Shown piece by piece: positions 2 to 56,524 of a stretch of DNA of 64,000 nucleotides. The stretch covers positions 32,001-96,000 of the IMG/VR virus record IMGVR_UViG_3300037721_000031; one strand, 5' to 3'. This DNA is from a virus. Lineage: Duplodnaviria > Caudoviricetes. The notes beneath the pieces were generated by a model that was not told where the DNA came from, made no database searches, and saw only the letters and a list, made by a program, of their open reading frames with translations. Position numbers and translations under genes: made by a program. Numbering within the stretch: position 1 is the first letter of the stretch; each line of letters begins with the position of its first letter.

Positions 2-700
2 CCTATTAGAGTATTACGTCATCCTAAAAGTGATCTAGCGTTAAATATACCAGATGGCAATTCGTACAACATTGAAGAAGGCATTGCTGTTATAGCTATT
101 AACTTACCAATGTTGGCGCTGCAATACCGTGAGTATCAGATTTACGAAGACTCAGTAGCTCTCTCTAGAGGTGAATCGCCTCGTGGATTGACACATTACA
201 TCTATAGTTACGCATTGACAAATATGATGTACAGTCATCTAGATGTAGCCATATTTAACAGATTGTACAACTTACTAATTGGTGCGCCTCTTGGGGTATC
301 TACTAAGAAACACTCTTTCTACATTCAAGATTATGAAAGTAAGCTAACAGATCTTCAGTTACTTCAGCTTCGTATGTTAGAAAGAAATCCTCGTAAGTTA
401 GACGCAATGATGCGAATGATTCCTCTTGTGACAGAAGCTAACTTATCAACCATGTCTAGATTACCAGACATGGTACCAACAAGACCTGTTGTATGGTCTT
501 TAGTGCTGAGTCGATTACAGTTACTATCGTTTATATACGGTGCTAATACAGACGGTGCAAGAGTTAGAAACGGAACCGAAGTAAATAGAATAACTAGAAT
601 GTTTCAGTTATTCGATATAGAAGAAGTGTTAGGTAGAATTCTACCTATTGATTACTTCCTTGATGTGAGCCAACAAATCAAGAAAATCACACAGGCATAA
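2..700 (+). CDS. 5'-truncated conserved phiKZ-like protein, probably virion structural
   Basis: Frame is open from position 2 (PIRVLRHPKSDLALNIPDG...) into the listed 110 ATG, so the gene starts before the window. Its TAA stop lies inside the GGCATAA palindrome arm. Confidence 0.6.
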   Translation, partial: PIRVLRHPKSDLALNIPDGNSYNIEEGIAVIAINLPMLALQYREYQIYEDSVALSRGESPRGLTHYIYSYALTNMMYSHLDVAIFNRLYNLLIGAPLGVSTKKHSFYIQDYESKLTDLQLLQLRMLERNPRKLDAMMRMIPLVTEANLSTMSRLPDMVPTRPVVWSLVLSRLQLLSFIYGANTDGARVRNGTEVNRITRMFQLFDIEEVLGRILPIDYFLDVSQQIKKITQA

Positions 701-737
701 AGACTAGAGCCTTGTAAGGCTCTAGTCTAATTATGCC
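694..737. terminator. GGCATAA-family palindrome, likely bidirectional terminator between convergent genes
   Basis: ggcataa-agactagagcctt-gt-aaggctctagtct-aa-ttatgcc. Confidence 0.75.
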
Positions 738-746
738 GTCTCGGTT

Positions 747-2879: not shown

Positions 2880-2967
2880 GCTTGTTTCTCATGTAAATTA
2901 ATTTCTCAGCCAAATGTACAAACTACAACATAGAAAATAATGACAGCATAAAAAAAAAATAATGTCT

Positions 2968-3001
2968 TACAAATAGTGCTCCGTACGGAGCACTATTTGT
3001 A
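2968..3001. terminator. Perfect 34-bp palindrome, terminator-like
   Basis: tacaaatagtgctccgt|acggagcactatttgta, preceded on + by gacagcataaaaaaaaaa (TTATGCTGTC plus U-tract on the minus strand). Confidence 0.7.
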
Positions 3002-3018: not shown

Positions 3019-3987
3019 TTACGGAGTAGCCATAGCCCTTTCAAAACTCCAACCATAACACATTAGTCTGTTATAAAGTCTTGTGTAATTTTTATTATAT
3101 TCTTTAGCCCACTCGGATACTTTCTTTGTAATTCCGTTATGTGTAAAAGTTGTTTCTGTCTTTATAGATACAGTTGTGGCTTTCTCAAAACTCCAACCAT
3201 ACTGCATTAGCCTACCGTACAGTGTATGATACGGAATTTTGTATTCAGTCGCCCACTCTCTAATACTTTTCGTTACTCCATTATGAGTAACAAAGCAAGT
3301 ACTCTTCCTTTCTAAAGAACCCATCTTTGTATTAAAAGCCCTCTCAACGGTCCAACCACATCTTACAATTCTTGAATACAAATCAGTATATATTAAATTC
3401 TTGGCCTTAGCTTCCGGTGTCTCAGCTAATTCTAGTAATGTTAACTGTCTACCGTTATATTCATAACTTGGCTTTACCTTATAAGATCCTGGTTCACTAT
3501 AAATTGGCTTCCATTTACAGCTACCAGGTTCATAAATCTTAGACATATGTTTTCTAACAACTTTATGTTTATGGTCGGGACTCGGACCCATATCGTTATA
3601 GAAATTTTCAAATGAGTCTTTCCACCAATCACAAACAGTAATACCTCTGTTGCCAAAATTAGAATACTTCTTATCAGACTTATTGTAACAGACGCTAAGT
3701 ATATCTTCCCAGACTTTTCTTTCAAAGTCTCCTGGGTTACTATAAGTTGGTTCTACTTCATCTTGAGTATCGGAAACATCTTGTTTATTACAAAATTTAG
3801 AGCTATTACTTGTAATACATCCGCAGTCAGTCGTAACTTTACCAACGAGACCGTTACCAGAAAATGTCGTTATTGTACCACAATCACAATGACAGACCCA
3901 ACCATTTCCTTCAAAGAATGAAAAATCATTATTCATTTCTTTTACAGTAAGAATACCGAATCTACGTCCTACTAAGTCTTGAAACAT
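3019..3987 (-). CDS. Free-standing HNH homing endonuclease-like protein with a degenerate active site and three C-terminal HTH-like repeats
   Basis: Has GRRFGILTV, CHCDCG, DCGC and YSNFGNRGITVCDWWKDSFENFYNDMG. C-terminal repeats follow (T/E)xNG...LY.RL..(Y/C)GW.xE(R/K)A. Confidence 0.75.
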   Translation of the reverse strand: MFQDLVGRRFGILTVKEMNNDFSFFEGNGWVCHCDCGTITTFSGNGLVGKVTTDCGCITSNSSKFCNKQDVSDTQDEVEPTYSNPGDFERKVWEDILSVCYNKSDKKYSNFGNRGITVCDWWKDSFENFYNDMGPSPDHKHKVVRKHMSKIYEPGSCKWKPIYSEPGSYKVKPSYEYNGRQLTLLELAETPEAKAKNLIYTDLYSRIVRCGWTVERAFNTKMGSLERKSTCFVTHNGVTKSIREWATEYKIPYHTLYGRLMQYGWSFEKATTVSIKTETTFTHNGITKKVSEWAKEYNKNYTRLYNRLMCYGWSFERAMATP

Positions 3988-4000: not shown

Positions 4001-4429
4001 TTACGGTTTAGATGTAATAGAAACTGATCTTGCTTTTAATGAATAAATAGTTCTGATAGCTTCCACAGAATCCGTTACCTGTGAGATAGCACAATGTATG
4101 GAATCTTCCTTAAAAGGATCTTTCGTCATACTGACTGAATTATAAAGGAAGTCATAAACTATCTTATCACCATATGACCAGATGAGAGTATAATGATGCG
4201 GTTTTGCAGGGCTACGATAAACTCTGAGAAATACCATTAATCCGAACTGTTCATCCTTGGTGAGCATGTATAGCATAGCTATTCGCTGAAAGCCGCAATA
4301 TGTTTTACCATATTTATCACGCCTCAGTCTTGTTTTTGTAACTGGATGAAATACCTTTGAAAGTTCTAAGAAATTTAACAGCGGGTCTTTCTCTGGCTTC
4401 TTAAGTAAACTTTTAAACCAATTAAACAT
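4001..4429 (-). CDS. Hypothetical protein
   Basis: 142-aa ORF, co-oriented with neighbours; AGAG upstream of the ATG. Confidence 0.6.
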   Translation of the reverse strand: MFNWFKSLLKKPEKDPLLNFLELSKVFHPVTKTRLRRDKYGKTYCGFQRIAMLYMLTKDEQFGLMVFLRVYRSPAKPHHYTLIWSYGDKIVYDFLYNSVSMTKDPFKEDSIHCAISQVTDSVEAIRTIYSLKARSVSITSKP

Positions 4430-4451
4430 CTTTAGACTCTCTTCCTAATTA

Positions 4452-4496
4452 CGGCATAAACACTGAAGCCCTAAGAAAGCTTCAGTGTTTATGCCG
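4452..4496. terminator. GGCATAA-family palindrome
   Basis: cggcataaa-cactgaagc-(9 nt)-gcttcagtg-tttatgccg. Confidence 0.75.
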
Positions 4497-4548
4497 CATT
4501 TCTGTAATGCGTACATATTAGTTATAAGTATTACAACTAGTCTAACGA

Positions 4549-4781: not shown

Positions 4782-5177
4782 TTAGATCAGCTGAATATCA
4801 AGATTATTGAAACCATTCTGAACCAACGCAATCCGTACTCTCTCAACATCAGAGCTACTAACACCTTCGATCTTAACCACCATACGCCTGGACTCTACTA
4901 ATTCAAGCGTGTCCAGGTTAATCCATGGAATGCCAAGAATTGTAGCTACTCCAGATGCAGTTCTGATACGAATATAGTCGTACTGTGACGGATCATCAGG
5001 AATACCGGACGGTAAATGAGGATATACGTTAGTGTGAATAGCTGGAATATCAACTGTCTGTAACGCTGTCTCGTAATCTAAGATTGCAAGAATAGTGATG
5101 TTCTTGAAATCATTACCTAAAATAGAAGTAGGGTGGACGTCAAAATTGTAGACGCTTTTTAACTCAAATGGATACAT
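4782..5177 (-). CDS. Conserved phiKZ-like small protein, possibly virion-associated
   Basis: 131 aa with YNFDVHPTSILGNDFKN...ILGIPWIN, a pattern recalled from jumbo phage conserved proteins. Confidence 0.55.
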   Translation of the reverse strand: MYPFELKSVYNFDVHPTSILGNDFKNITILAILDYETALQTVDIPAIHTNVYPHLPSGIPDDPSQYDYIRIRTASGVATILGIPWINLDTLELVESRRMVVKIEGVSSSDVERVRIALVQNGFNNLDIQLI

Positions 5178-8237: not shown

Positions 8238-8300
8238 AGTCTCCCTTTATAGTGCTATTGGTTACTACAAAATAATGCCAGAAGATAAAAAAATGACGCA

Positions 8301-8354
8301 GCATAGTAGCCTATAGGGTCTCTCGTTTGAGAGACCCTATAGGCTTTTTATGAC
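8301..8354 (-). terminator. GGCATAA-family palindrome terminating phuZ
   Basis: 17-bp stem agcctatagggtctctc-gttt-gagagaccctataggct, flanked by gcata and ttttatgac; minus-strand U-tract follows. Confidence 0.8.
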
Positions 8355-8372
8355 ATTCTAGAGGCTCTTATA

Positions 8373-9362
8373 TTAGAGAACAAGCCCGTTATCTGTAGCG
8401 CTATCCTTATCTGTCAGAATCGTAGGAGTGTTAATCCTAGCGCGCTGAATTTGTTCAAGCTCTTGCAGCTTTGAACTCAATGCTTTAGCAGCATGTGCCA
8501 TCAAGTCTGTTGTGATAACCAAATTAATTGGAGCAGCATTGATCAAACGATCATTCGCGCCTTCAGGCATGAATCCAACTGCTTGATAATCTGGTGTAAT
8601 CGGCAGGCTAGAATCCCCACCCTTTTCACACAGAGTAACTACACTTACAACTTCACCAGCATGTTCAGTAGGGAACTGCCCAAAGTAGGTGTTCAGAGCA
8701 GCAAGCTGAGGCGCGAACGTAGTCGCTCTATTGAAGTTCAAGAAGTTGAACAGATCTTTAGAATCAAGTTCACTGTTCTCTCTGGAGTATGCAGTCAATA
8801 ATGCGGACACTGTTTGCAGTACTTCAGAATCAACTTGTGCACGAGGAGTTACTGAGCTGTTTTGCATATACTTCACAACTACAGGCTTTCCACGAAGCTT
8901 GCTGATTGCTTCATAGGACTTGATAGTCTTCAGAGTGTTGTCCACATCCAAACGAGTATCACTTGCTCCAACCAACACCACTACAACTGCAGTATCTCGC
9001 TCCAGCAACTCAGAAACGATGGACGGTGCGATAACAGAACCAGAGCCACCGGAAGCTGAAGAGATGACAACAGACAAATCAAGCGGTTCATGACGTTGCA
9101 GAATGTCTCGTGTATGCGCGGCGATCTGTTGGTAGTTTTCCTTACGGATCTTACCAGAACCATCAAGATCTTTCAGGAGATACACTGCACCTTCAGGAAC
9201 ATTGGTCGAAAGATTACTACGGCTTGTGTCGATGTATGAAATTTCAAGCTTTGATACACCGATCTCTTCATTATTCCGAAACTTCTCTAGCTGCGAAGCG
9301 ATATTAATCCCGGCGCCACCACATGCAAAGATCCTGATAATTCCTTTTAGCTTTTCGGTCAT
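8373..9362 (-). CDS. phuZ: Phage tubulin PhuZ (spindle that positions the phage nucleus)
   Basis: CGGAGINI, YIDTS and DGSGK motifs, tubulin signature SASGGSGS, T7 loop LDSKD, and an acidic-hydrophobic C-terminal tail DSATDNGLVL. Confidence 0.93.
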   Translation of the reverse strand: MTEKLKGIIRIFACGGAGINIASQLEKFRNNEEIGVSKLEISYIDTSRSNLSTNVPEGAVYLLKDLDGSGKIRKENYQQIAAHTRDILQRHEPLDLSVVISSASGGSGSVIAPSIVSELLERDTAVVVVLVGASDTRLDVDNTLKTIKSYEAISKLRGKPVVVKYMQNSSVTPRAQVDSEVLQTVSALLTAYSRENSELDSKDLFNFLNFNRATTFAPQLAALNTYFGQFPTEHAGEVVSVVTLCEKGGDSSLPITPDYQAVGFMPEGANDRLINAAPINLVITTDLMAHAAKALSSKLQELEQIQRARINTPTILTDKDSATDNGLVL

Positions 9363-9480: not shown

Positions 9481-10284
9481 ATGAACCCTATCGCGATGGC
9501 GTTGAACCATATAAAATTCACGATACCTCGAGAAATCCTGGATACTGTCTTTATTGAAAGAAACCGTTTTCTTCGACAAGTACCAATGACTGTTGATGCC
9601 CACATCACAAATGAAGTTATCAGAGCACGCATTCTTCCTGAACTTAATCTGGTTGGTGGTGCTGAAATATTTGTAGCATTACAGGGAATAATGCCAGAGC
9701 GGATTAATCAATACACGTCAGTCTATAAAATTCCGAAGAGCAGGACTGGTGGGCGTTCAATAATTAGTGTTCTAAATGTAACATTCTCAGATCCAACAGC
9801 TACCTCTAATTATGGTACAGCAACGGGTTGTCAAAGTACTGAAATGCTGACTACTGCGCAAGCAATGGTTGACGCAATGGGTACAATTCCAATTACATCT
9901 ACTTCACATGTTCAGTTAGTTGGTGAGAATACAGTAATGGTTAGAGATACAGTACTTTTACCAGCCAACATATATTTGCGTTGTGTTGTCGAGAATGATT
10001 CTAATCTTAGTCATCTACAAGCTCGTAGTTATCCGGCATTTTTTAAGCTAGTAGAATTTGCTGTAAAAGCTTTTATTTATAATAATCACATCATTCAGAT
10101 GGATGTTGGTGAGCTTTACGGTGGTCACAATTTAGGCAGGTTCAAAGAAGTCGTTGATAGCTACTCTGATGCTGAGGAAATGTACCAAACTCACATGAGA
10201 GAAGTAATGGCTAAGGTAATGATGATGAACGATACAGAGTCTATAACCCGACACATTAGAATGCTTGTGGGCGGGCGTAGATAA
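9481..10284 (+). CDS. Conserved phiKZ-like virion structural protein
   Basis: 267 aa (MNPIAMALNHIKFTIPREIL...KAFIYN), divergent from phuZ as in related phages; AGGA RBS. Confidence 0.6.
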   Translation: MNPIAMALNHIKFTIPREILDTVFIERNRFLRQVPMTVDAHITNEVIRARILPELNLVGGAEIFVALQGIMPERINQYTSVYKIPKSRTGGRSIISVLNVTFSDPTATSNYGTATGCQSTEMLTTAQAMVDAMGTIPITSTSHVQLVGENTVMVRDTVLLPANIYLRCVVENDSNLSHLQARSYPAFFKLVEFAVKAFIYNNHIIQMDVGELYGGHNLGRFKEVVDSYSDAEEMYQTHMREVMAKVMMMNDTESITRHIRMLVGGRR

Positions 10285-10293: not shown

Positions 10294-10349
10294 GACATAT
10301 GAGAGCTATAAGCTATTCAATAAAGAATAGCTTATAGCCTTTTATGCCG
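10294..10349. terminator. GGCATAA-family palindrome between convergent genes
   Basis: gacata...gctataagctattc-aataaa-gaatagcttatagc-cttttatgccg. Confidence 0.75.
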
Positions 10350-10371
10350 TACAATTATTTTATAAACTCAT

Positions 10372-11490
10372 TCAGAAGTCTACATCAAACACTTTACCAG
10401 TATCGGTACGCTGCATTACGTTTACCTTGTACTGCCCATTTTGCTGTTCTTGAGGAGCAGCTTGTGTCTTAGAGATATCAATCCACTTTTCCATAAATGG
10501 GAGAGGATTACTCTTAGGCATTTCAAAATCAGAGTCGGGTTGAATCTCTAAGATATCGTAAACATCACCGGCTGAGTAGATGGTCCACTTATCCAACATC
10601 TTACCGTTAAGACCAGCTAATGGTTCTGTATCGAGATCCAGACCCTTATTCCATACAAGCTCAGACATCACTACTTCTTTGATTAATTTCTTAACCAACG
10701 GAAGAGTCTCCTGTCTTGCAATCGCACCCATTGAAGTTTGATGTTCATTAGCGAGTACTAGTCTACCTAGCTCCACATGTACTTCAAACTCGTCTTGGCA
10801 GATTTTTTGTACAGTTTTAGCAATAGGAACAAACGCACCTGCCGAACCAATAGCAAACGTTACTGCGAACGAACTCATAAACTGAATACGTTCCATCACC
10901 AACATTGCCACGACAAGCATGTAAATTGCATTATACGTACTTTGGTCAGCTTGACGCAACCCTAATGCATACTCGTGACTAACTTTGTAAGTGTGAGCCA
11001 TAACCTCAGAGACTATAGTCAGTCTCTGCATTGCTTCCTTAACCTTGAGTACTTCATCAAGTACCTTGTGTGGGTCATCAAAGCTATAACGAACAATCTC
11101 AGAATATGCTGATGCGTGTACAATCTCATTATCTGTGATTCTACCGTACGCTGCTTGTAATTCAGGAGAGCTAATGAATGGAGCCATAATTGGCAACAGT
11201 GTACGCGCTGCAACTGAGTCAGCTTCCCACTGCCATGCCAGGGTCTTAATCATTCTTTCCGAAATAGACTTAGGACGAGTCTTGAATTCGGTATTACACG
11301 TCTTGAAGTCCATTGTGAACTCTTGTTCATCCCAATCCAAAGACTTCATGTTCTTATAGTTTTCCCAAATCTTAGGAAATCTACGATTCACTGTATCAAA
11401 CAAGCCGGCTTGCTGACCAAGAAACAAACTAGTGTGCCCACTAACAGCATAGTCTGTTTTATCAGTATTGAAAATATTCTTATCAATCAT
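10372..11490 (-). CDS. nrdB: Class Ia ribonucleotide reductase beta subunit
   Basis: Diiron/radical motifs WEADS, NEIVHASAY (radical Tyr), MERIQF and DEFEVH; adjacent to nrdA. Confidence 0.93.
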   Translation of the reverse strand: MIDKNIFNTDKTDYAVSGHTSLFLGQQAGLFDTVNRRFPKIWENYKNMKSLDWDEQEFTMDFKTCNTEFKTRPKSISERMIKTLAWQWEADSVAARTLLPIMAPFISSPELQAAYGRITDNEIVHASAYSEIVRYSFDDPHKVLDEVLKVKEAMQRLTIVSEVMAHTYKVSHEYALGLRQADQSTYNAIYMLVVAMLVMERIQFMSSFAVTFAIGSAGAFVPIAKTVQKICQDEFEVHVELGRLVLANEHQTSMGAIARQETLPLVKKLIKEVVMSELVWNKGLDLDTEPLAGLNGKMLDKWTIYSAGDVYDILEIQPDSDFEMPKSNPLPFMEKWIDISKTQAAPQEQQNGQYKVNVMQRTDTGKVFDVDF

Positions 11491-11521: not shown

Positions 11522-11555
11522 AGGACTAGGGGAATGTTCCCCTAGTCCTTTATGT
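11522..11555. terminator. Hairpin between nrdA and nrdB, family variant
   Basis: aggactagggga-atgt-tcccctagtcct followed by ttatgt. Confidence 0.6.
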
Positions 11556-11562
11556 AAGCGTA

Positions 11563-14142
11563 TTATAAAGAACAAGCCCCGGAATCGCAACCGGCGCTTG
11601 AACCAGCTGTGTTTTCTGACTCCACATAGATAACGTTACTATTTTCAAGCGATGCAGTATCGCTATTAATCATAGCTTCGTCAGAATGAATATTTCCACC
11701 ACTTGCTTCTACTTTAGCAAGAGTATCGAAATGAACTGTTGCATCAGTTTTCTTCAACACTACCTTCTTAGCTGACTTTACATTCATGTAGTATTGTGAT
11801 TTCATTCCTACACGAACCATATGGAAGAAGTTCTCAAGCATTTCATCAGTAGTCACCTTCTCAGCGCCACGAATATGTCTATACAAGTCTGCTGAAATCG
11901 ATTGATCTGTAAATCCTTGAATAATACCATAGATGTCAATTAGATCTTTAGTTGGTACATCCCAAGCTAATTCATAATTTAGCTTATCGCCATCTGGTGC
12001 TGCCCAATACGTAATGATATTATTATCACTTTTATTAAGAGTAATGTCCCTTACTGGATAAAGGCAATTTGTTGCAGCTGCGGCTTTCGACGAGGTCTCA
12101 CCAGGCATGTATGCTACAACAAAAGAATTACGAATTCCTTTATTCTCTACAATTTCAGCACGTAATTGTTCCCAGTCATACTGAAGCTCGACATTAGGTA
12201 CGATCTTTTCAACAACGTACTGATTACGTGTATCGATAGGTAACCAACCTTCGACCCACTTAGTACGATGGATCCATGGAGCATTACCGAGCTCCCGACC
12301 TAATTGAAGAGATGCCTTAATGCAGTGATAGCTGTGTCGTTCAGCAACACGATGGATTTCTTCTTTACCTTCTTGACTAGAATACTTCAAGTTTTTCTTA
12401 GCCATGTAGTGTGCCAAACTCATAATGCCTACACCAGCAGACATTCTATTTTTAGCTGTATATCCGATATGTGGTAGTGTGTACTCTGATTTATGAATAC
12501 ACTTATCAATCATGAGGAGAGTGTAGTATGCGGCTTTTTCATACTGCTCGTCAGTATCGACATTAGAAATAATGATCGCACCTAAAGAGCACAATGCTAC
12601 TTCGGGTTCTTTCTTCAGGTTCAGTATTTTAACAACTTTTAAACCCATAAGACTGAGCGAGGGTACGTCGCAAAGATCGCCGATTTGTAACTGCTGTGCA
12701 GCAACGTACTTATACTTACCAGAATACAAACGAACGACACGTGGTGCATCCAGTCGACGGATAATCTCATATTGGTCGATAAATTCAATATATCCCACAG
12801 ATTGCTTAGAATACAAGTCTTCCATTGACTCATACGGTTCGGTGGATTCTACGATTTCGACACATAAGTTCGAACTAAAAATAGGGTCTTTAGCCGGAGT
12901 GTGTCTATTAATCTCATCAATAAACGTTAAATAAGCACGGCCAGTCTCAAACGTCTCATTTCTATTTGCCAGAACTACTTCACGAGCAGAAATGTACTTC
13001 TTCTTAAACTCTGGATCATTCTCATACTTAGAGTAAAGATATTCAAAAGTCTTTGGATCCGAATCAAACATTGAATAATAAAGATCTGGTGCAGTATGTG
13101 AATTAAACTGCATAATTGGTTCATCCAGAGCAGCTTTACGCGCTAGTAGCTTATTCGCATGCATAGTGTAATCCATGTCGCGAATTTGCTTCTCTGTCGG
13201 TGTCATTGGATTCTTTAAAGCTTGCAGAGTCTCTACTTCTGGATCAAATGCACTAAAGAAAGAGTTACATGCACCAGCTCTACCATTTTGCATGTTAGCG
13301 CGTACAGCGCCATTCATAGCACGCAAGTATGGGAGCTTTCCTTGATGTATGATCATACCACCACGAATGGAATCACCTACAGAGCGTGTATGTAAGATAT
13401 TACCAATACCGGCTGACTGTACAGTCATCTTGTATGCAATGTGATCACCAACACCTAATGAGCTAGCTGTGTCCGATGATGCGTATAAACAACATGACGC
13501 ATAACCGTTTAACGGAGTGCCTAGATTAGTATAGTTCGGTGTAGGTGCACTAATAATGTTCTTGGAAAGAAGATTATAAAACTCTTTCACGTCATTCATG
13601 CGACGATCACGAGGCTGATCCTCAGACAGAGCCATAGCCATCCGCATAAACACAAATTGAGTAGACTCAAATTCGTGACCCCCTAGACGATCACGCAAGG
13701 CATACTTAAACCGGATATGGTAATGTTGAAAATGAGCATATTCAAAATCACGTGTGTGTTGAATAATATCTTCAGCGATAGCATATTCAGAATCATCATA
13801 GTCGAGATTAACCATGAGCCCTGCTTTATTAGATGCTTTAAAACAGTTCTTTACAGTTGGAACACCTTGTGGATAAATTTCTTTATACATAATGGCAGCA
13901 TAAAGTCTACCAGCCATTCTGTTATAAGACCATGTGTCACGATCAAGACATTCTCTGATCAATGCATACTGAAGATCAGAACTACTGCAAGCTTCAGGTA
14001 ACGACCCTACAGCGTTCAGCACAACACCAGACCAATCCACATAGTCACTTAATGACTCAGCGGCCCAGATACCCCATCCATTGACTTTAGTGGCATTAAA
14101 TGGCTCACGTGAACCATCACGCTTAATAATTTCGTTGATCAA
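11563..14142 (-). CDS. nrdA: Class Ia ribonucleotide reductase alpha subunit with ATP-cone and an internal insertion
   Basis: N-terminal IIKRDGSREPF ATP-cone, ASCCL, SSNLCVEI, ALCSL, MPGETSS, KSQYY and C-terminal CDSGACSL shuttle cysteines; TTG start after AGAGGT. Confidence 0.95.
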   Translation of the reverse strand: MINEIIKRDGSREPFNATKVNGWGIWAAESLSDYVDWSGVVLNAVGSLPEACSSSDLQYALIRECLDRDTWSYNRMAGRLYAAIMYKEIYPQGVPTVKNCFKASNKAGLMVNLDYDDSEYAIAEDIIQHTRDFEYAHFQHYHIRFKYALRDRLGGHEFESTQFVFMRMAMALSEDQPRDRRMNDVKEFYNLLSKNIISAPTPNYTNLGTPLNGYASCCLYASSDTASSLGVGDHIAYKMTVQSAGIGNILHTRSVGDSIRGGMIIHQGKLPYLRAMNGAVRANMQNGRAGACNSFFSAFDPEVETLQALKNPMTPTEKQIRDMDYTMHANKLLARKAALDEPIMQFNSHTAPDLYYSMFDSDPKTFEYLYSKYENDPEFKKKYISAREVVLANRNETFETGRAYLTFIDEINRHTPAKDPIFSSNLCVEIVESTEPYESMEDLYSKQSVGYIEFIDQYEIIRRLDAPRVVRLYSGKYKYVAAQQLQIGDLCDVPSLSLMGLKVVKILNLKKEPEVALCSLGAIIISNVDTDEQYEKAAYYTLLMIDKCIHKSEYTLPHIGYTAKNRMSAGVGIMSLAHYMAKKNLKYSSQEGKEEIHRVAERHSYHCIKASLQLGRELGNAPWIHRTKWVEGWLPIDTRNQYVVEKIVPNVELQYDWEQLRAEIVENKGIRNSFVVAYMPGETSSKAAAATNCLYPVRDITLNKSDNNIITYWAAPDGDKLNYELAWDVPTKDLIDIYGIIQGFTDQSISADLYRHIRGAEKVTTDEMLENFFHMVRVGMKSQYYMNVKSAKKVVLKKTDATVHFDTLAKVEASGGNIHSDEAMINSDTASLENSNVIYVESENTAGSSAGCDSGACSL

Positions 14143-14216: not shown

Positions 14217-14331
14217 AAATATAAGTAAATATTGATTATTGTTACAGAGTAATAGTTACTAGTTATTCTGTAAAGACTAACACATAAGGTACTTCCCAGT
14301 CATGAAAAAATACTTCAAGTTTTATGTAAAA

Positions 14332-14369
14332 CGGCATAAAACCCAAGAGAGTAAGTCCCCTGGGTTTTA
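14332..14369. terminator. Degenerate GGCATAA-family element
   Basis: cggcataaaaccca...tgggtttta; the right outer arm is not conserved. Confidence 0.45.
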
Positions 14370-14400: not shown

Positions 14401-14859
14401 TCAGTCCGACATAATGAAAGAGATATATCTCTTAGACTGTAAGTGTAAAAGTTCAAACTTCAGACACATGTCTTTTGTAGACGTTACTTGAGTCTCACAC
14501 CCTAAGTACTTAGTAGTAAAGCTCTTCAATATACCAGATCCTTGAATATGATCTTTCTTATTATACTCAAGAGGTAGACTCACTCTTTGTGTTAGTGAGC
14601 TGTCACTACTATGCAGTAGTTGCTCCAGAACATTACTAGGATTCTGGATATCTGGAGACTCTCCAGGAATACGCGTCATTAAATGCACATTTACAGTAGT
14701 ATTACTAGAACTCTTGTTAGAGATTCTAGCTACCAGACTCTTAGGAAGAGTCATGCAGTAAATAAGTGTTGCTAGACGTATAACTGGAGACTCAGTATGT
14801 TTATTACCATGAATAGTTAACATCCATGGGTCTAATATGTTATCTACATAGTTATTCAT
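14401..14859 (-). CDS. Hypothetical protein
   Basis: 152 aa; ATGA overlap with the upstream ORF. Confidence 0.55.
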   Translation of the reverse strand: MNNYVDNILDPWMLTIHGNKHTESPVIRLATLIYCMTLPKSLVARISNKSSSNTTVNVHLMTRIPGESPDIQNPSNVLEQLLHSSDSSLTQRVSLPLEYNKKDHIQGSGILKSFTTKYLGCETQVTSTKDMCLKFELLHLQSKRYISFIMSD

Positions 14860-16175: not shown

Positions 16176-16181
16176 CGAATA

Positions 16182-16224
16182 GACATAAACAGACAGTTTC
16201 ATAGCGAAACTGTCTGTTTATGTC
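16182..16224. terminator. GGCATAA-family palindrome
   Basis: 19-bp stem gacataaacagacagtttc-atagc-gaaactgtctgtttatgtc. Confidence 0.8.
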
Positions 16225-39854: not shown

Positions 39855-39906
39855 GGCAATGTTCCTTTAATAAATCAAACTAATTTTACTACTGACTGCA
39901 AAAATA

Positions 39907-39968
39907 GAAAAAAAAGCGATAATGAAAATTACTCATAACATCTCTGTTTAGAGCATTCTCATTATCGC
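39907..39968 (-). terminator. Rho-independent terminator after the vRNAP beta gene
   Basis: gcgataatga...tcattatcgc stem followed by a T9 tract on the minus strand. Confidence 0.55.
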
Positions 39969-39976
39969 AATTCAAC

Positions 39977-41095: not shown

Positions 41096-42494
41096 CTTTA
41101 TGTCCACTGAGTTCGTTATTTCTCAGTCGGTGTGCTATGACACCCGCATTGACTTTCATCAATGAACAGACTATATCTTCACCCTACAGATAGGGTGTTT
41201 CCTATTTCCACTCACTTGAGTGTACACCGTGATAAGCGGCTAGTCGTTGAACGTTCTTCCTAAGTTAATTAGGAGCTTCGCTGCGGATTACCCAATCCTT
41301 ATATCTTTTACCATACCCGGGTAGTTAGTCCGGCCATCAATGCATTGCTGTCATCGACTTGGTGTATAAGGCTCTTAGGGTGTCCCCGTCAGTTAAGGAA
41401 AATACCATCTGACCATTTCTGATCAGTGGGACCATATGGATAATAACCATATCGAAAGTTATCAGAAAAAACTTTACTTCCTTGAGTCTTCAGTCTGTAA
41501 TCCAAAGCAGTTGGTGATATTCCCATTGCTTTGGCACAATCTGAAGCAGAATGATAATAGCCGATGTTTCCGGTTTTCTCACATATCAGTTTAACAATTT
41601 TCTTTGCGTATCCAGAAGTATTAAATTCTAGCAAAGGGTCGTTAATCTGACACCAAGGTGTTTCATCTGAAGACCACTTAATTTGAAGTAGTCCGGGTAA
41701 AATTGACTGACTTTTCCTCGATAACCATTGAGAGACAGTAGATGGCAGAATATTTTCTTCTTCACAGAAGTCTGTTATTCTTGCATACTCTTTGACAGTA
41801 TTGTCAAAGACGTTCCTAACCAAGATACTCTTGGATGTACTGTTTTTCTTCAATTCGTGTTCGATGGAATTTGGAATGTACCACGGTTCTTCACTGTATT
41901 CTCTGTATTGTTTCTTTTCAGGGAATATACGTTTTTCACCGATTTTAACTCGATACCCAATAGCGTCTTTTGACATACTGTAATATCTTGCGCATTCGAT
42001 AATACTCGGAAAATGCATCACAATCCCAGTAACAGTATTTCTTACTGAAATTGGCACACATTTTTCAGTGAGTCCATTCTTACCAGCATGCTCTGCATTT
42101 CCTTGGTAAGTAGTCCATTCTAAATTGTCAAGGCGATCATCGCCTTTTATGCCATTTTTGTGATTTACAACAAGATCATCGTAAGAGCAATCCATGGGTT
42201 TGAATACCATGCAAAGCACTCTATGTCTACCCAACGTTGTGCGTTCACTACTATCTTTGTACAAGAAGTAGTTGTAGTACCCGTCAGGATTTCGATGATA
42301 ATGTCTGATCACATTGAGTTTCTGGTCTATAATAACACCTTCCGGCGAAATCACGTATCGTGAAAATCCAGAAATCTCATAAAACCCTTGATAACATTTC
42401 GATGCAGTTGGCTCGAATAAATTCATTTTCTACTCTGCGAAGTTATATCACATTATAGAGTTAATTTCATTCTAATTCAACTATATCCATTTTA
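41096..42494 (-). mobile_element. Group I intron (IA2-like) carrying an HNH endonuclease
   Basis: 5' exon ends in U (GAT|TAA) and the intron ends in G (taaag|CCA). Q aatccgcagc at 41280-41289, R gttcaacgacta at 41241-41252, S aagatatagtct at 41168-41179; P7.1/P7.2-like hairpins and P8 caccc/gggtg. Splicing restores DRDDPKR. Confidence 0.92.
41389..42426 (-). CDS. Intron-encoded HNH homing endonuclease (NUMOD4-like N-terminus, HNH, three NUMOD1-like repeats)
   Basis: GRHRVLC...VVNHKNGIKGDDRLDNLEWTTYQGNAEHA; C-terminal repeats such as HFPSIIECARY and YYHSASDCAKAMG. Confidence 0.9.
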   Translation of the reverse strand: MNLFEPTASKCYQGFYEISGFSRYVISPEGVIIDQKLNVIRHYHRNPDGYYNYFLYKDSSERTTLGRHRVLCMVFKPMDCSYDDLVVNHKNGIKGDDRLDNLEWTTYQGNAEHAGKNGLTEKCVPISVRNTVTGIVMHFPSIIECARYYSMSKDAIGYRVKIGEKRIFPEKKQYREYSEEPWYIPNSIEHELKKNSTSKSILVRNVFDNTVKEYARITDFCEEENILPSTVSQWLSRKSQSILPGLLQIKWSSDETPWCQINDPLLEFNTSGYAKKIVKLICEKTGNIGYYHSASDCAKAMGISPTALDYRLKTQGSKVFSDNFRYGYYPYGPTDQKWSDGIFLN

Positions 42495-45400
42495 ATCATC
42501 ACGATCTGACGCTACTGATAAGAGTGCTGCGGTAGAAAACAATGCAGTAGCTCCGGTTTTACCAATAACATATCTGTTAGATGTTCCACGTAAAGAATTA
42601 AATTGAGGATCTGCACTTGTGTATGTATTGATAGCTACATCTGAAGAATCCACTGTTGCCTCTGAAATAGTACCCATATCGTTTTTATGGTAAGCACGAT
42701 TACGTTTCACCATTGAACGACCAGTACGTCCACCAACACCTGAGAATGTTACAGCTTCAGATTCTTTCAAATTCTGAATTGGATTTATTTCAAGGTTTTG
42801 ATTTTTAGCAGAATCTTCATTGATAGCTATCCATACGGCGTACGGATTTAAATCGATGGCGGCAGTAGTCTTATTTGCTCGAGCCCCATGCATTCTAACT
42901 GATCTAACTAGTTCAGAATAAAGAATACCTGCAAAACGCTCATATCCCTTAACTCTCATAAATGCAGGGTCAAGTTCGTAAGGATGTTGATCGTCTGTCA
43001 ATAACTCACCACTACGCAGTAAGAGCTTTGTGAATTCTACTGGTTCATTCATCTGCTCTAAGAGATCCTTAGTAATTGGATCAACGAACATTTGATTTAG
43101 TAGATCCAACTCTCTCATGTACCTCACACCTAAGCCAGCATCTTCAAGTAAATTGAAGTATACATCTTTACGATTGAACTCATGTGCAGGATAGTTATAA
43201 GTACTATCTTCGTGATCTTGCCAACCAGCAAGGATCATTGTGGCTAAGACATCGTCTCTGGAGAATATCCAAGTTTCGTCTTGAAATACAATACTCCATT
43301 CATCAGCTGCTAAACTAGGTCTTTGACCAGCAGGAATGATGCGTGGGTTTACTTTCAGGATCTTAAGCAGGTTATCTAACCCAATCAAGTAACCAAGTAC
43401 AACGCCTAGAGAGATGGCCTTACCGAATACCTTTAACTCAGCGTGTTCGATTGGTGCCTTATTTAAACGCAGTCCTATGAGATCCTCTAATGATGATAAT
43501 GCATGAAGTCTATTACCATTAGGACTACCATCAACAGTATAGAGTGCACCATTTCGACCCATCACCATCAGATCACCATCTTCACTCATTCCGATTAGTG
43601 TATTACCACCTTCTTCAACATCTTTTAAACTAAGATCACCCATTATTAAGTGTCTACGGTTTATCTCAAAGTTGAGTTTCCAGTTCTTATCGTTTATACG
43701 TAATGTAAAACTACGAAAGTTCTTGGCGATCGTGGTGTATAACTTTGGAGCAGCCACGCTTGGTTGAAATGCATCTCCAGTAACAACATCTGTAATCAGA
43801 TCTTGATCACTAAGGCCGATCAGCATAATAGCATCAGTAAGCCAACGACCATAGTCGTTAACTTTCTTCTCACTACGAGCAACAAAGATCTTTCCATAGT
43901 AGCTAGTCAAGGCTACTTGATTTGGAGAAATCTTACGGATCGGAAGATCGCTCTTTTGTTTACGAGTTCTGTAGTTAACATTGTTAACACGGAAGCTGCC
44001 GTCTTCAGTTACTTTTGGAATTCTGAAACGCAGTGTCGATGTAGCTCCTTGTAATGGCTTTACTTTGACGGTGTAGCTGTTGTAAGCCATCGAGACATTT
44101 TCAACTTGTTCGACCTGATAATCTAGTACGATAATTCCAGCTTTCTGCAGGTTCATTACCATACCAGCAATATCTCGCTGCATTACTTTAGTAATGTATT
44201 TTTCATCGAATTCCATCAGTGACGATTTAAGCATGGTCTTATCGACTAAGGTGCTTTTATCAGGAATAGAAGGAGATTCTTTAATGTCGAGTAGGTCTCT
44301 AGGAATGTTAATAAACTGATCTAATGTGGTACCATCAGGAGCAGTAATACTCTTATATGTCCCAGCTAACTCTAGATACTTACGATAATCCGCAGCAGAT
44401 AATCCTCCAGAGTCAGCCAGAGCATTACATCTGGCAATGATGGAATCTTCAAGGGACTGTCCAGTAGGAATTACTGTAGCAATATCGAAAACTTCTTGAT
44501 CGTCAGTTAATTCGGTATCGTTAGAACTAACAGCAATATCTTCAAGTGTTTCTAAGTCAGCATCTACCTGTGCATCTATGTTTACGATGTCTTCTGGTGA
44601 CTGCACTTCTTGTTCGTCGTCTTCTTCAGGACTAACTACTTCGATGTCGTCATTATCCAGATTAGAAGTAAACGAATCATCAGTATTATCAGTTACACTA
44701 GTTGCTGTTTCTTGTACTTTACTTACAGCCGCAATAGTATCAGAGTTCTCTTCATCTTTACTCGGTTCATTAACAATACCGGCACGAGCCTCGAACAAAC
44801 TCATTGATAACCGAATGAACAGCTTCTGCATCCGATCAGCGGGATGACCGTGAGCGTTAAGAGTAGAATCTTTTTCTAACTCTTCTTTGGTTGCTTTACG
44901 CCAGACATTCAATTGTCCGAGATTAAGTACAAACCAGCGTCCTGACTCTCTAAATATTAGATTCACACGATCTAAGTTTTTAACAGGAATTTTAGAGATC
45001 GCTGATTCTTCTCTCTTAGTACCCAACCATTGCCATACTTGTAACAGAATGATTGATTCTGACGATGTGAATATCCGTGCTGACTTCTGATCGATAGCTC
45101 TCTCAGCCTGACGTAATTGTGTCAAGCTAGGTAACGTCTTAGGAATATCGAATTCGATGAACTGATGTCTATCAGTAGTCTCAGCTACCTCAGCTACTTT
45201 AGTAAATACAGTAGAAATTAAATTATTCCACCGGTAATACGACGTATAGTAATTACGCAGGTATTTGTATAACCTGTGTATGAAACTATAGTTATACACT
45301 AGTACAGACTGTGGATCACGAACAGCACTCTCTAAAGATTTGAAAGGTCTGAATCGTGGATTCTTAGCTCTGTGACTACGGATTACGCGGTTAACGTCTA

Positions 45401-45656
45401 TCAGTAAACGCCTTGGATTACCATCGGTGTGCTTAAGTTCTGTAACTGTGTCTATAGTAAATGGTCTAGCTGAACTCTTGATAGCATTCTCTGATTCAGT
45501 AGGTCCATCATCCAAAGGACCTGTACCTAAATAATGATAGATTGAATTGCGTGGTAAGTCTAACAATTCTAATCTAGACAGAGGAGGCTTGATTAGTTGA
45601 TCAATCTTACGAATACCGTATTTTCTATAAAAAACTGGATACTGTAGTGTGGTCAT
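42495..45656 (-). CDS. Virion RNA polymerase beta-like subunit (phiKZ gp178-like), 5' exon
   Basis: 1054 codons; GVGGRTGRSM and DMGTISEATVDSSDVAIN motifs; ends ASDRDD at the intron. Confidence 0.9.
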
Positions 45657-45670
45657 ATTTCTATTAGTAC

Positions 45671-47296
45671 TTAATCATCACCCGTAAGATTACGACATAC
45701 GAGTTCGACAGTGTGTACTCCTGTACGATTAATAAACTGTCCGTCAGTACCTACGTAGGCACGACGACTGTTGAAAAACTCTTCACATTCTTCTATAGCC
45801 TCTTGAGAGTACGCTACAGTATAGCTGGAAGTGTCGCCATCGAAGTCGGCACCCATACGGGCGAGTTTATTGACAGCAGGAATAAGAGAGTTTACAAATG
45901 CTGCTCCTTTTACAGGGAACTCATAAGCCATTGCATCATCACTCATTGGCTGCCATTGCTCATTAAGCTGCATTCGTCTTTCAGATGTAAGAGTTACTCG
46001 AAGATAAGTTCTACTAGGATAAATAGAACCAATGCCCGTAATGGGATATCGAGTAACCATTGCTGGATATGTATTAGCCTTCTTATAAACAGCAATGTAG
46101 AACAGTTCAGCTAGTGAAATTGGTCTCACATCCTTCTTACTACGAGAAGAAGGTAGTTCAGAAATATCATGCATAATCCTGAATGTATTGTCAGGACCTA
46201 GGTACAGTAATGCTATATAACGGCCGTCAATTTCTAAAGGTACGTCGCGAATACTTTCTTCCTTGAAAGAAGAAATAATTCTTTCAATACCTTCGTTTGT
46301 AGCCCATTGATTATAATAGCGACTATGTAATAGTACCTCTTCTGACTCTAGTGTTTCTTTATTTACTAGACGAGCTGGCTGGTTTACATCAGGAAAGATA
46401 GATTCCAATAACCTACGAATTTGAAATACTGTTACCGGCAATGTAGCCTTCATGAACTGATATAACCCTACAATTGTAGAGTTGACATCAGGATTACCTT
46501 TTCTACCAAGATATGGTACAGAGGTATCCATAGCAGTAATCACGTTTCTAGTACCATTGAATACTCTGCGAGATGCCCACTTTCCTAGCAACAGTTTCTT
46601 CTTACCTTCAATTAGTGAGAAGATCATGTCGTAGATAGTGTTGAAAATTATCTGCATCTGATATCTCGGAGTGTCTAGCGCATCGACCTGAGTTTTTACA
46701 GTAGACTCATTAATAGTGTTTGAAATAGATATCAGTTGACGATAAGGCTTATTAATTTCATCTTCACTAATTCTGTTGTAGTTATCTATTTCAATATCAC
46801 GTAGTCCAGCAGGTAAAACAGCTACTTTGTCTGTTAGCGCTCTATTACCATATTTCTTAATAAGTAATACAGCTTGCTCTCTGTTAATTGAACTGGTAGT
46901 ATCGAAATGAATCTTTAACCAATGCTCAATAAAAAAAGCATACCCTGTAGAGCCATCGATGGCGCTAGCTTTAACAAAGTCTCTCAGTTCTTCATCAAAG
47001 CGACCATATCCTTTACCGGATAAGATGTCGCCATAGAGATGTTTCATTTTGACTAATACGTTAAAAATAGCCGGATGCAAAATAGGTACTTTTATATCAA
47101 TGTATGCGAAGCGAAGGCTACGTCGTTCATCACCTACTCTTCCAAAGATAGATGTTGAAAATAGACCTTCTTCTGAAAAATCAGAAGATCCACCTTCAAA
47201 GATATCTAGCTTTGATATTTTCTTTAAACCACGTAACTTCTCAGGAGTTAGGTTTAAAAGGTCAACGTTAAACGGGACATCGGATGGTTTTGACAT
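45671..47296 (-). CDS. Virion RNA polymerase beta'-like catalytic subunit (phiKZ gp180-like)
   Basis: GADFDGD catalytic motif, RYPI, VFNGTRNVI, GLFSTSIFG and VLPAGLRD. Confidence 0.93.
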   Translation of the reverse strand: MSKPSDVPFNVDLLNLTPEKLRGLKKISKLDIFEGGSSDFSEEGLFSTSIFGRVGDERRSLRFAYIDIKVPILHPAIFNVLVKMKHLYGDILSGKGYGRFDEELRDFVKASAIDGSTGYAFFIEHWLKIHFDTTSSINREQAVLLIKKYGNRALTDKVAVLPAGLRDIEIDNYNRISEDEINKPYRQLISISNTINESTVKTQVDALDTPRYQMQIIFNTIYDMIFSLIEGKKKLLLGKWASRRVFNGTRNVITAMDTSVPYLGRKGNPDVNSTIVGLYQFMKATLPVTVFQIRRLLESIFPDVNQPARLVNKETLESEEVLLHSRYYNQWATNEGIERIISSFKEESIRDVPLEIDGRYIALLYLGPDNTFRIMHDISELPSSRSKKDVRPISLAELFYIAVYKKANTYPAMVTRYPITGIGSIYPSRTYLRVTLTSERRMQLNEQWQPMSDDAMAYEFPVKGAAFVNSLIPAVNKLARMGADFDGDTSSYTVAYSQEAIEECEEFFNSRRAYVGTDGQFINRTGVHTVELVCRNLTGDD

Positions 47297-54410: not shown

Positions 54411-56420
54411 GTGTCTCTCCGTCGACAAGTCAGGGATACCCAATGGGTACGCCAATCATTTCTAGTATCTCTTGATGCTAAGAACAAACCGCAACTCGAC
54501 AATATCGAATTGCGCAATAGAACGTTTACTACCGCTAGATTTAAGTTTGTAGATACTACTCCTGGCGGTAACTTATGTATTAATCCGCCACCGCAGTTTA
54601 CACGGAATGCAGACCCAAAGGTAAATAACATTTTTACCCCACGTACACAGACTGGTCGCACTGTACAGACTACGGCTTCTCGTGGTCTTGGACGTTACTA
54701 TAGCGAGGCTATGGATGACAACATGCGTATAATCAGCATGCGTATGGGAGTACCTCAGTTTAATTCCTTGACGACATTCTTTACCGGATTCTATAATGCA
54801 GATGCAGGTTCTCTTGCCAGAACAGGTAGAGCTTCTAGTTGGATTTATACATTCTTTAGGGCAGCTGCGTTTATAGTACCATTACTGTCATTACCTATCT
54901 TATTCATTACTTGGGCAGGTAATACGTGGCGTTTTCTGAATGGTAATCCAAGTTCCAAGTATTACTATTTAAAACCAACAATGCCTTTATACTGGAATGC
55001 AGTTAATTCAATTGTGAATTTAATTGCTGTCAATAAAGGCATCATACCTCGTTTTTTTGATGAAGATACAAAGAACAAGATTGGTGATAATAGGTTTGCA
55101 TTTACTGGTGCCGATCTGCAACGATTCAGTCAGTTAATGCCTGACATTATGCGCCCAGATGGTGGTATTGATGTTTATGCTTTATCTACACGAGCCCAGC
55201 GTATAGCTCGTAGAGTTTATAAGCAAATGGATGTTGTTTATAGTCAGTTACATGCTTCTGGTGGAGGTCCGGATCAAATAGCTGAATATCTTGACAGAGT
55301 AGATAGACTCGGCATGCAAATAGATCCAGAGGATCGCGCACGTACATTCTCTCGTTATTTATCGGATTGGTTTGCAGCTACTCGCTCTCAAGTTAAGGCA
55401 CCTACAGCTCCTCCTTCAGCAGGCGCACAGGCGGCTAATAGTAACGGAAGCAGCGGTGTAGAGTCATTACCTACTGAACAAAGCGATGTAGATTCTTGGG
55501 ATAAGTTCCTAGAAGCCGAACTAGATGACGGTTCGTCTTTTATCTCCTTCCGTGTAGACTCTGACGGACCAGCTAGTGAAAGCTTTAGTAATACAGTAGG
55601 ACAATCAGACATTGCTAGTAGGTTTAACTCAATGTCGGGTAGTTCGCGTTCTACTGCGTTTAGTTTTGCTGGAGGTAACGTATCAGGAGATACCTTGGTT
55701 GGTGGTGCTGTGCAGGCTGTATTGGGTGCTGCTGCGGATGCTGTGCGTGGTGTTAGAGATGGTTTGCAACTTACAGGCCTGGCTGCTCTTGGTGGCGCTG
55801 CATTTGTTGATATTCCAGAGCACTGGCAATCATCTACCGCTAACTTACCAACAATGAGTTACTCATTCACACTGACTTCTCCTTATGGTAATAAGATGTC
55901 ACAGCTTACGAATATTTATATTCCACTAGCAATGATACTGGCATGTGCTTTACCATTATCTACAGGACGTCAATCATACACAAGTCCGTTTCTAATAGAA
56001 CTTTATGATCGTGGTCGAGCGCAAACTCGTTTAGGCATTATTGACTCTTTAAATATATCACGAGGTACTTCTAATCTGGCGTTCAATACTGCTGGAGAAC
56101 CAATGGCTATTGATGTATCATTCACTGTTAAAGACTTATCAACAGTAATGCATATGCCAATTATCCAAGGCTTCTCACTGACCAACCCGACAGCTAGTGT
56201 ATTCGACGATGATAATACATTTACAGATTACATGTCGGTACTTGGTTCACTTACTCTTCAAGAACAGATCTATACTGGTGATAAGCTTAAGTTAGCTTTT
56301 ACTAGATTAGGAGCTCAGTTCAGGTCATGGAAAAGCACAGCACGATGGATGCAATTAATCGGTGACCTACCTCCTGCAAGACTTGCAAGTATATTTTATA
56401 CGGGTATTAATAACAGATAG
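54411..56420 (+). CDS. Tail/baseplate structural protein (phiKZ gp182-like)
   Basis: 669 aa directly after the tape measure; GLGRYYSEAMDD, SPYGNK and ALPLSTGRQSYTSPF motifs. Confidence 0.7.
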   Translation: MSLRRQVRDTQWVRQSFLVSLDAKNKPQLDNIELRNRTFTTARFKFVDTTPGGNLCINPPPQFTRNADPKVNNIFTPRTQTGRTVQTTASRGLGRYYSEAMDDNMRIISMRMGVPQFNSLTTFFTGFYNADAGSLARTGRASSWIYTFFRAAAFIVPLLSLPILFITWAGNTWRFLNGNPSSKYYYLKPTMPLYWNAVNSIVNLIAVNKGIIPRFFDEDTKNKIGDNRFAFTGADLQRFSQLMPDIMRPDGGIDVYALSTRAQRIARRVYKQMDVVYSQLHASGGGPDQIAEYLDRVDRLGMQIDPEDRARTFSRYLSDWFAATRSQVKAPTAPPSAGAQAANSNGSSGVESLPTEQSDVDSWDKFLEAELDDGSSFISFRVDSDGPASESFSNTVGQSDIASRFNSMSGSSRSTAFSFAGGNVSGDTLVGGAVQAVLGAAADAVRGVRDGLQLTGLAALGGAAFVDIPEHWQSSTANLPTMSYSFTLTSPYGNKMSQLTNIYIPLAMILACALPLSTGRQSYTSPFLIELYDRGRAQTRLGIIDSLNISRGTSNLAFNTAGEPMAIDVSFTVKDLSTVMHMPIIQGFSLTNPTASVFDDDNTFTDYMSVLGSLTLQEQIYTGDKLKLAFTRLGAQFRSWKSTARWMQLIGDLPPARLASIFYTGINNR

Positions 56421-56479
56421 TTTATACCTTATGTTAAAATAGATACTATTTACAGTAGTACAGTTGAAAAAAAAGAAGA

Positions 56480-56524
56480 CGGCATAATAGCTAGAACCTT
56501 ACTGGGTTCTAGCTATTTATGCCG
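56480..56524. terminator. GGCATAA-family palindrome between convergent genes
   Basis: cggcat-aatagctagaacc-ttactg-ggttctagctatt-tatgccg. Confidence 0.8.

Follow-up and report, generated by a model that had tools for sequence, protein, structure and literature searches.

In the jumbo phage phiKZ, 61 terminators mapped by ONT-cappable-seq share a stem-loop followed by the motif YTTATKYYGT (Putzeys et al. 2024, PMC10914365). Motif A of phage 201phi2-1 (n = 59) 'strongly resembles' that of phiKZ, and a second motif lengthens the stem when both co-occur; eight of the 201phi2-1 terminators, placed in a terminator trap, were active even in Pseudomonas chlororaphis cells that were not infected, and so with the host RNA polymerase (RNAP) (PMC11512511). 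Here we analyse a family of dispersed palindromes in a 64,000-nucleotide stretch (the window) of the uncultivated virus IMGVR_UViG_3300037721_000031. The palindromes form a single sequence family, lie at the ends of transcription units, are conserved among relatives while their stems are replaced, and are identical in form to the mapped terminators. Judged by this homology with the phiKZ and 201phi2-1 sites, they are very probably transcription terminators of the phiKZ type. The class itself was described in 2024 for those two phages; the present phage adds a further example.

The window comprises bases 32001–96000 of a single 266,566-bp contig (GC 39–40%; CheckV completeness 98%). PHROG matches place the genome among the phiKZ-like jumbo phages: they include split multisubunit RNAP beta-type genes (beta-subunit matches at window 39977–47296), tail sheath, terminase, DNA polymerase and ribonucleotide reductase. 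The genome encodes both virion and non-virion multisubunit RNAPs; a homologue of gp123 (non-virion RNAP, nvRNAP) lies at genome 145643–147271, and a 541-aa protein matches the gp180 group. The nearest isolates are Burkholderia phage FLC9 and Ralstonia phage RP12, with about 43–57% amino-acid identity in RNAP subunits. Megablast returned no DNA-level match among phage records, and scans of viral and metagenome contigs for close relatives returned none either. Protein searches reached uncultivated relatives of graded identity, from 93% down to 67%, and eight contigs were compared (labelled L032, L033, L034, L035, L036, L039 and so on); genes are 65–82% identical and intergenic DNA is strongly diverged.

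Hairpins followed by a fixed tail

All 15 palindromes that an earlier note had listed from the letters of the window fold as hairpins. Perfect hairpins (stem of at least 10 bp, loop of at most 14) number 24 in the window, where 20 first-order Markov simulations give 1.15 on average, and 125 in the whole genome, against 3–6 in shuffles. Most of those in the window terminate in (T)TTATG(C/T)(C/T)GT, so that a stable stem-loop is followed directly by the tail TTAT-K-Y-Y-G-T. The word TTTATGCCG occurs nine times in the window where 0.38 copies are expected, a count reached in none of 100 shuffles.

To avoid circularity in describing the tail, the sole criterion for choosing intergenic TATG sites was a hairpin next to them on the upstream side (n = 93). 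The bases around these sites show a strong bias: T at −2 (0.68) and −1 (0.74), Y at +4 (0.90) and +5 (0.88), G at +6 (0.62) and T at +7 (0.67). The remaining 369 intergenic TATG sites have flat flanks. Nor is the tail enriched by itself: TATGCCG is found 24 times without a hairpin, about 23 copies being estimated from base composition, and its excess consists of the 30 hairpin-linked copies. No Rfam family covers the elements. As stems of unrelated sequence and unequal length do not lend themselves to alignment by MAFFT, the family was traced with our own hairpin-plus-tail scans.

Among the listed sites, the tail is weak at 11522, displaced at 2968 (where TTATGCTGT sits 18 nt after the stem, beyond a T10 run) and altered at 33262 (where the minus strand reads TATGACGGT). 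Several details of the earlier description hold. Three elements (30557, 36616 and 56480) share the inner AATAGCTAG, and one arm, by its GGCATAA, does supply the stop codon of open reading frame (ORF) 110–700. Distant U-tracts are likewise real: among 77 members, 19 have a run of at least six T no more than 32 nt past TATG, as do 14 of 2002 other TATG sites. Where found (about a quarter of members), such runs begin 5–9 nt past TATG.

The tail of this phage, TTTATGCCGT, fits the phiKZ consensus. The position of the RNA end within such a tail was checked with the eight termination-site coordinates printed in PMC11512511, which we placed on the 201phi2-1 genome (NC_010821). All eight fall on a hairpin plus tail; seven coincide with the last base of stem plus TTTATGYY, the conserved G being next, and the eighth is shifted by one base (the accuracy of ONT-cappable-seq is about 1–2 nt; PMC11512511). 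Read in this way, the fixed tail is made up of the eight bases between stem and release point, followed by two conserved bases that would lie outside the released RNA.

Unbiased 5-mer counts beside perfect hairpins, made on whole genomes, recover the same signal. TATGC follows hairpins 62 times in this phage (3.4 expected), 64 times in RP12 (53% GC; 2.0 expected), 22 times in phiKZ (37% GC; 2.8 expected) and 10 times in 201phi2-1 (0.9 expected). By the same hairpin-coupled counts TATGC is not enriched in SPN3US and T4, which have plain T-rich tails. Plain counts of TTATGYYGT against its reversed control are raised in 201phi2-1 (41 against 12), PhiPA3 (46 against 16), Ea35-70 (18 against 6) and Eowyn (34 against 18), and are not raised in SPN3US (1 against 10), AR9 (3 against 12), T4 (3 against 6), EL (3 against 9), PCH45 (5 against 11) and RSF1 (10 against 14). 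The exact word TTATGCCGT exceeds its control in RP12 (24 against 4), FLC9 (15 against 2) and phiKZ (4 against 1). These plain counts suggest that the motif also occurs in FLC9, PhiPA3, Ea35-70 and Eowyn. They are blunt, this genome itself giving 39 against 22, and the lack of enrichment in EL, PCH45 and RSF1 is therefore weak evidence of absence. Persistence of the fixed tail across phages of different host genera, with GC contents of 37–53%, suggests that it is tuned to phage polymerases.

Placement at gene ends and conservation among relatives

The siting at operon ends, and above all between convergent genes, that had been remarked on earlier is pronounced. Taking a good tail as a match to TATGYYGT with at most one mismatch, 16 of 17 elements at convergent junctions possess one, 11 of them on both strands. 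Tandem junctions account for 30 loci (15 sense-only, 7 two-sided and 8 antisense-only), and divergent junctions for none. The elements thus sit where genes or transcription units end, and bidirectional copies separate genes that converge.

This placement bears on the nature of the outer arm. The fixed 5′ arm, (C)GGCATAAA, is the reverse complement of the tail TTTATGCC(G). The earlier note was right that a fixed outer arm exists, and the 5′ arm serves the opposite strand as its tail; the premise of a separate signal outside the stem needs restating: the 3′ arm is the tail between stem and release site. From its sequence the palindrome is best read as a two-way terminator in which each arm is the other strand's tail. 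Convergent genes need a tail on both strands, and the element between them consequently takes the form of a perfect palindrome whose outer arms are fixed and whose inner stem is free; tandem arrays keep one arm or both.

A scan of window 20001–40000 for canonical intrinsic terminators (a GC-rich hairpin, 0–2 nt, then at least 5 T in 8) returned 12 matches where 11.4 were expected and captured one family member, the element at 36613. The fixed tail therefore appears to replace the usual U-tract. Sigma-70-like promoters are not enriched in the same interval (43 against 55 expected). A two-tier arrangement, in which the outer arms lengthen the stem so that a downstream T run acts as U-tract, is not supported by association: T runs accompany 10 of 46 elements with extended stems and 9 of 31 others.

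Conservation is seen at the convergent junction of the terminase and tail-tube genes. Here the window and all five covering relatives (67–88% identical by marker protein) keep palindromes with CGGCATAA arms; the inner stems are entirely different, and each palindrome folds perfectly. RNAalifold, run on a rough alignment of the six orthologs, shows no variation in the CATA and TATG columns and, as a rough count, compensatory changes at five pairs of the stem. A further two compensatory pair changes occur in the stem of the L032 ortholog of the 30554 element. Elements are retained at three more places, namely behind the small membrane ORF, beside the prohead protease gene and at 33262 (the junction has hairpin-plus-TATG elements in L032–L035 too). 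Between conserved element landmarks the relatives compared have 2 to 4 genes in one interval and 2 to 11 in another; variation in gene number between conserved elements indicates that the elements mark operon ends, not cassettes. The positions of the elements are given in Table 1.

Table 1. Members and variants of the palindrome family in the window, with predicted function
Position	Strand	Predicted type	Setting	Features
692–739	.	palindromic terminator	between convergent ORF 110–700 (+) and DNA polymerase 747–2879 (−)	inner stem 701–728; plus tail ATTATGCCGTC; weaker minus tail TTTATGCCTGT; arm supplies TAA 698–700
2943–3001	−	variant	downstream of ORF 3019–3987 (−)	perfect 17-bp stem 2968–3001; on minus strand after stem AGACATTA, then T10 run, then TTATGCTGT (2943–2951)
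4451–4497	.	palindromic element	tandem minus-strand array, between ORFs 4001–4429 and 4782–5177	18-bp perfect arms, 9-nt loop; TTTATGCCG on both strands
8298–8356	−	terminator	downstream of ORF 8373–9362 (−)	stem 8308–8345; sense tail ACTATGCTGCG, then T7 run; weaker plus-strand tail TTTTATGACAT
10294–10350	+	terminator	between convergent ORFs 9481–10284 (+) and 10372–11490 (−)	stem 10301–10341; tail TTTTATGCCGTA; degenerate 5′ arm GACATATGAGA
11522–11558	.	weak variant	between ORF 10372–11490 (−) and ribonucleotide reductase 11563–14142 (−)	13-bp stem; sole tail weak TTTATGTAAG on antisense (+) strand; sense strand without tail
14331–14368	−	terminator	downstream of ORF 14401–14859 (−)	imperfect stem 14338–14368; tail TTTTATGCCGTT
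16180–16226	+	terminator	after ORF 15558–16175 (+)	19-bp perfect arms 16182–16224; sense tail TTTATGTCGTC; antisense arm weaker
18746–18801	+	terminator	between ORF 18292–18702 (+) and terminase 18843–21056 (+)	long stem 18746–18796; tail GTTATGCCGAA; orthologous hairpin-plus-tail at junction in four relatives
21058–21098	.	bidirectional perfect palindrome	between convergent terminase (+) and 289-aa virion/tail-tube-like gene 21124–21993 (−)	
30066–30112	.	two-armed element	after virion protein gene 28322–30025 (+)	
30554–30600	.	bidirectional terminator	between convergent small membrane ORF 30238–30540 (+) and ORF 30610–31242 (−)	minus tail TTATGCTGTC, then T10 run
33256–33299	−	variant	downstream of ORF 33323–33805 (−)	19-bp perfect palindrome; tail CCTATGACGGT
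36613–36654	.	palindromic element	directly downstream of prohead protease gene 36660–37436 (−)	TTTATGCCGTA on sense (−) strand; TTTATGCTGTT on plus strand; kept in L032, L033 and L035
56479–56525	.	bidirectional terminator	between convergent ORFs 54411–56420 (+) and 56529–57641 (−)	full TTATGCCGT tail on both strands; T8 run follows on minus strand
59947–59989	+	member absent from the earlier list	35 nt after ORF 59479–59913 (+), within 3′ part of convergent ORF 59886–60746 (−)	imperfect GC-rich hairpin, then TCTATGCCGTC, then TTTATTTTT

One of the intervals delimited by elements, the block of small minus-strand genes at window 33323–36516 (from the 33262 element to the prohead protease gene), has 7 genes here; the orthologous blocks contain 7 genes in L032, 11 in L033, 4 in L034 and 2 in L035. 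By gene content it is a hyperplastic region inside one apparent operon. One and the same terminator element, with its flanks, is present at both ends of the contig (genome 115–150 and 266459–266494), and genome bases 101–222 are repeated as the final 122 bases, which suggests that the assembly overlaps itself and that the genome is circularly permuted or terminally redundant. The RNAP beta-type subunit gene at window 39977–45656 (−) is split by a group I intron (41147–41452; Rfam RF00028, 78.8 bits) that bears an ORF for an HNH endonuclease (41389–42426). The pieces of the gene are 42492–45656 (profile positions 2–1050) and 39977–41107 (positions 1051–1421); it is undivided in L034, L035 and L039 (1402–1432 aa).

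Termination weighed against other readings

The earlier note had offered a terminator as one option among several, and the match to the mapped phiKZ and 201phi2-1 motifs, together with siting that is convergent or tandem and never divergent, bears that option out. We infer that in this phage RNA 3′ ends occur at the elements and arise by termination. The phage's own multisubunit RNAP would transcribe the variable stem-loop, of 10–19 bp, and next the fixed tail UUUAUG(C/U)(C/U). The hairpin would fold behind the polymerase, the U/A-rich start of the tail (UUUAU) would give a weak RNA:DNA hybrid, and the transcript would be released about 8 nt past the stem, at the two pyrimidines directly before the conserved G (then T). 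G-Y-Y-G-U would stand in for the distal part of a U-tract, hairpin-driven intrinsic termination being the most likely mode. As to the suggestion that a phage factor reads a sequence-specific signal, reading by the phage RNAP alone is unproven, eight 201phi2-1 terminators being active in uninfected cells.

Several points weigh against termination of the phiKZ type. The 3′ ends in this phage are placed by homology, the one sequencing run containing its DNA being a sediment DNA metagenome from which the assembly may stem, and mapped 3′ ends alone cannot separate termination from processing or from exonuclease trimming to a stable hairpin. Eight tandem loci have a good tail solely antisense to both neighbours, for which a pure sense terminator has no need; antisense terminators make up 9% of those mapped across six phages including phiKZ (PMC10914365). 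Finally, not every phiKZ-like phage has the tail: in SPN3US hairpins are not followed by it, and EL, PCH45 and RSF1 are unenriched by pattern.

The ambiguity of mapped ends, stated for 3′-end mapping in PMC10914365, also counts towards the view that the main role is processing or stabilisation of RNA 3′ ends. Read-through RNA would be cut or trimmed to the hairpin, and pairing of the 5′ arm and the tail would create a long, blunt-ended stem protecting phage mRNAs. Of 77 oriented elements, 46 do have a stem that reaches through the tail, some unidirectional sites included, and the complementarity of the arms runs almost exactly to the mapped 3′ end. That 3′ exonucleases stall several nucleotides from a stem speaks for processing as well. 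We nonetheless consider it improbable, for the 5′ arm is missing from many members and the 3′ end falls at one fixed base beside a conserved G, then T: bases conserved beyond the RNA end are not expected of a signal that acts only in RNA. Moreover, the 201phi2-1 elements reduce downstream reporter expression in the terminator trap in uninfected cells (PMC11512511). The invariance of TATG, which changes less among relatives than any other part of the tail, could alternatively mean that terminator and promoter are combined: TATG is the late-promoter consensus of phiKZ and strictly required there, so the hairpin-adjacent TATG might be an nvRNAP late-promoter core (−3 TATG +1), from which transcription would restart for the next gene or yield programmed antisense RNA at convergent junctions. 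Such a stop-and-restart would benefit tandem arrays. It is, however, hard to reconcile with the siting of the elements, which reach their fullest form where genes converge and no sense gene comes next, and are lacking at divergent junctions, where promoters must lie. Divergent regions extend TATG as TATGTTTCA, not as TATGCCGT, which argues against the tail being a promoter, and the published 201phi2-1 data put 3′ ends rather than 5′ ends at such sites (PMC11512511). We regard this combined function as very improbable.

Least of all do the data favour mobile or recombinogenic DNA, whether as attC-like cassette borders, as repeats of the repetitive extragenic palindromic (REP)/RAYT type or as shuffling sites akin to the promoter-early stem-loops (PeSLs) of other phages; we hold this to be extremely improbable. 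About 50 copies of the arms occur per genome, several inner stems share CTAG-rich cores, and gene content differs among relatives in the element-rich region, an extra 254-aa gene of L032 adjoining one element. Against this, the 98%-complete genome has no match to tyrosine recombinases (PF00589) or Y1 (RAYT) transposases (PF01797), and the copies, having unrelated inner stems, are not replicas of one element. The attC-like option of the earlier note is not supported, given the absence of a PF00589 match and the blocks of 2 to 11 genes between elements, rather than one gene per element pair. Its supposed single-gene cassette, ORF 30238–30540, is stable: every relative has it in synteny, at 54–76% identity, whether or not the upstream element (30066–30112) is there; that element is present in L033, degenerate in L032 and absent from L034, L035 and L036, where the ortholog of the ORF directly follows the upstream gene. 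As for the PnuC-like ORF of the earlier note, the tested ORFs gave no PnuC match in Pfam, and ORF 30238–30540 gave no Pfam match at all. Intergenic divergence is too great, at 65–82% gene identity, to place indel borders to the base. The attractive idea of integron-like cassette borders for these palindromes is removed as unsupported.

A possible role of TATG in both starting and stopping transcription

Within the terminator reading, one speculative extension is that the same word, TATG, serves both to start and to stop transcription, a pocket of the core polymerase catching the TATG of the tail during elongation. Capture would pause the polymerase two bases on, at the Y-Y before G, and let the hairpin release the RNA; the pause would resemble a sigma-dependent or core-recognition-element pause. 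If true, this would explain the replacement of the U-tract, the conserved bases beyond the RNA end and the clade-limited occurrence of the tail. We think it rather unlikely. Of five named residues of the GP123 pocket, Ser334 and Gln466 alone align as conserved in this phage and RP12 (identity 27–30%). TATG is also common within genes, with 1072 sites on the sense strand, and a hairpin would hence be required too.

Other signals were observed alongside the family. A candidate phage promoter word, TATGTTTCA (TATG plus TTYM), precedes genes at window 9450, 15531 and 54351 and at genome 4883, 25881, 240591 and others. Fifteen of its 19 intergenic copies point at the downstream gene, several in divergent regions; it has TATG in common with the terminator tail and differs in the extension. 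A second class of hairpin occurs between tandem late structural genes (window 25561–25636 and 28257–28322): a variable stem is followed by conserved TTTTAGGATACACT or TTTTGGAG(C/T)TATATTTAAA running into the next start codon, without the TATGCC tail, and the arrangement is kept in six to seven relatives with replaced stems. From its position this may be an attenuator or translation-coupling hairpin. Outside the window, at genome 216000–244000, many perfect hairpins without a TATG tail lie between small minus-strand genes; the region may be one of early genes, transcribed by the virion RNAP and with a different 3′ signal.

Relation to known systems and significance

For uncultivated phiKZ-like phages the family supplies an annotation rule for the ends of transcription units: a hairpin followed by TTATGYYGT, palindromic at convergent junctions. 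The motif mapped in phiKZ and 201phi2-1 now extends to a distant clade of sediment phages and to RP12, and on re-reading the published 201phi2-1 coordinates release falls at one fixed base of the tail. Combined with the new structure in which a core RNAP subunit recognises TATG, release at a fixed base makes a specific pause-and-release mechanism testable in vitro.

Resemblance to integron attC sites and to REP sequences or bacterial interspersed mosaic elements (BIMEs) is that of dispersed imperfect palindromes between genes, with conserved ends and variable centres. The differences are that this genome has neither an integrase (PF00589) nor a RAYT gene (PF01797), and the elements have no RYYYAAC/GTTRRRY cores, no GTAG head and, as REP/BIME copies would require, no relatedness of stems between copies; furthermore, placement follows gene orientation, and orthologous sites persist while stems are replaced. 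The PeSLs of T4-type phages, which Arbiol and colleagues are said to have described in 2010, reportedly contain an early promoter and are linked to cassette shuffling. The likeness is that in both cases regulatory stem-loop modules recur beside variable small genes, in the plastic parts of large phage genomes. The present elements differ as probable terminators at conserved operon ends, with no base-level tie to indel borders shown.

With canonical intrinsic terminators the family shares a hairpin followed by a U-rich segment, release about 7–9 nt past the stem, the bidirectional design of an A-tract/T-tract palindrome and, in the 201phi2-1 versions, activity with the host RNAP. In contrast to them, only the first five tail bases are U/A-rich here, and positions 6–10 are fixed as G-Y-Y-G-T, not U. 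There are also differences from the phiKZ and 201phi2-1 terminators. The inner stems are AT-richer, often with CTAG, whereas those of phiKZ are CCYCCCC/GGGRRGG; the tail is more uniform than in either phage (TATGCCGT dominant) and a larger share of elements are perfect palindromes. In RNAP subunits this phage has only about 30–45% amino-acid identity with phiKZ, RP12 and FLC9. The likeness to these two phages covers the stem-loop followed directly by (T)TTATG/K-Y-Y-G-T, the 5′ arm that lengthens the stem (the A/B motif combination), the bidirectional copies between convergent genes and the setting itself, a phiKZ-like phage with two multisubunit RNAPs.

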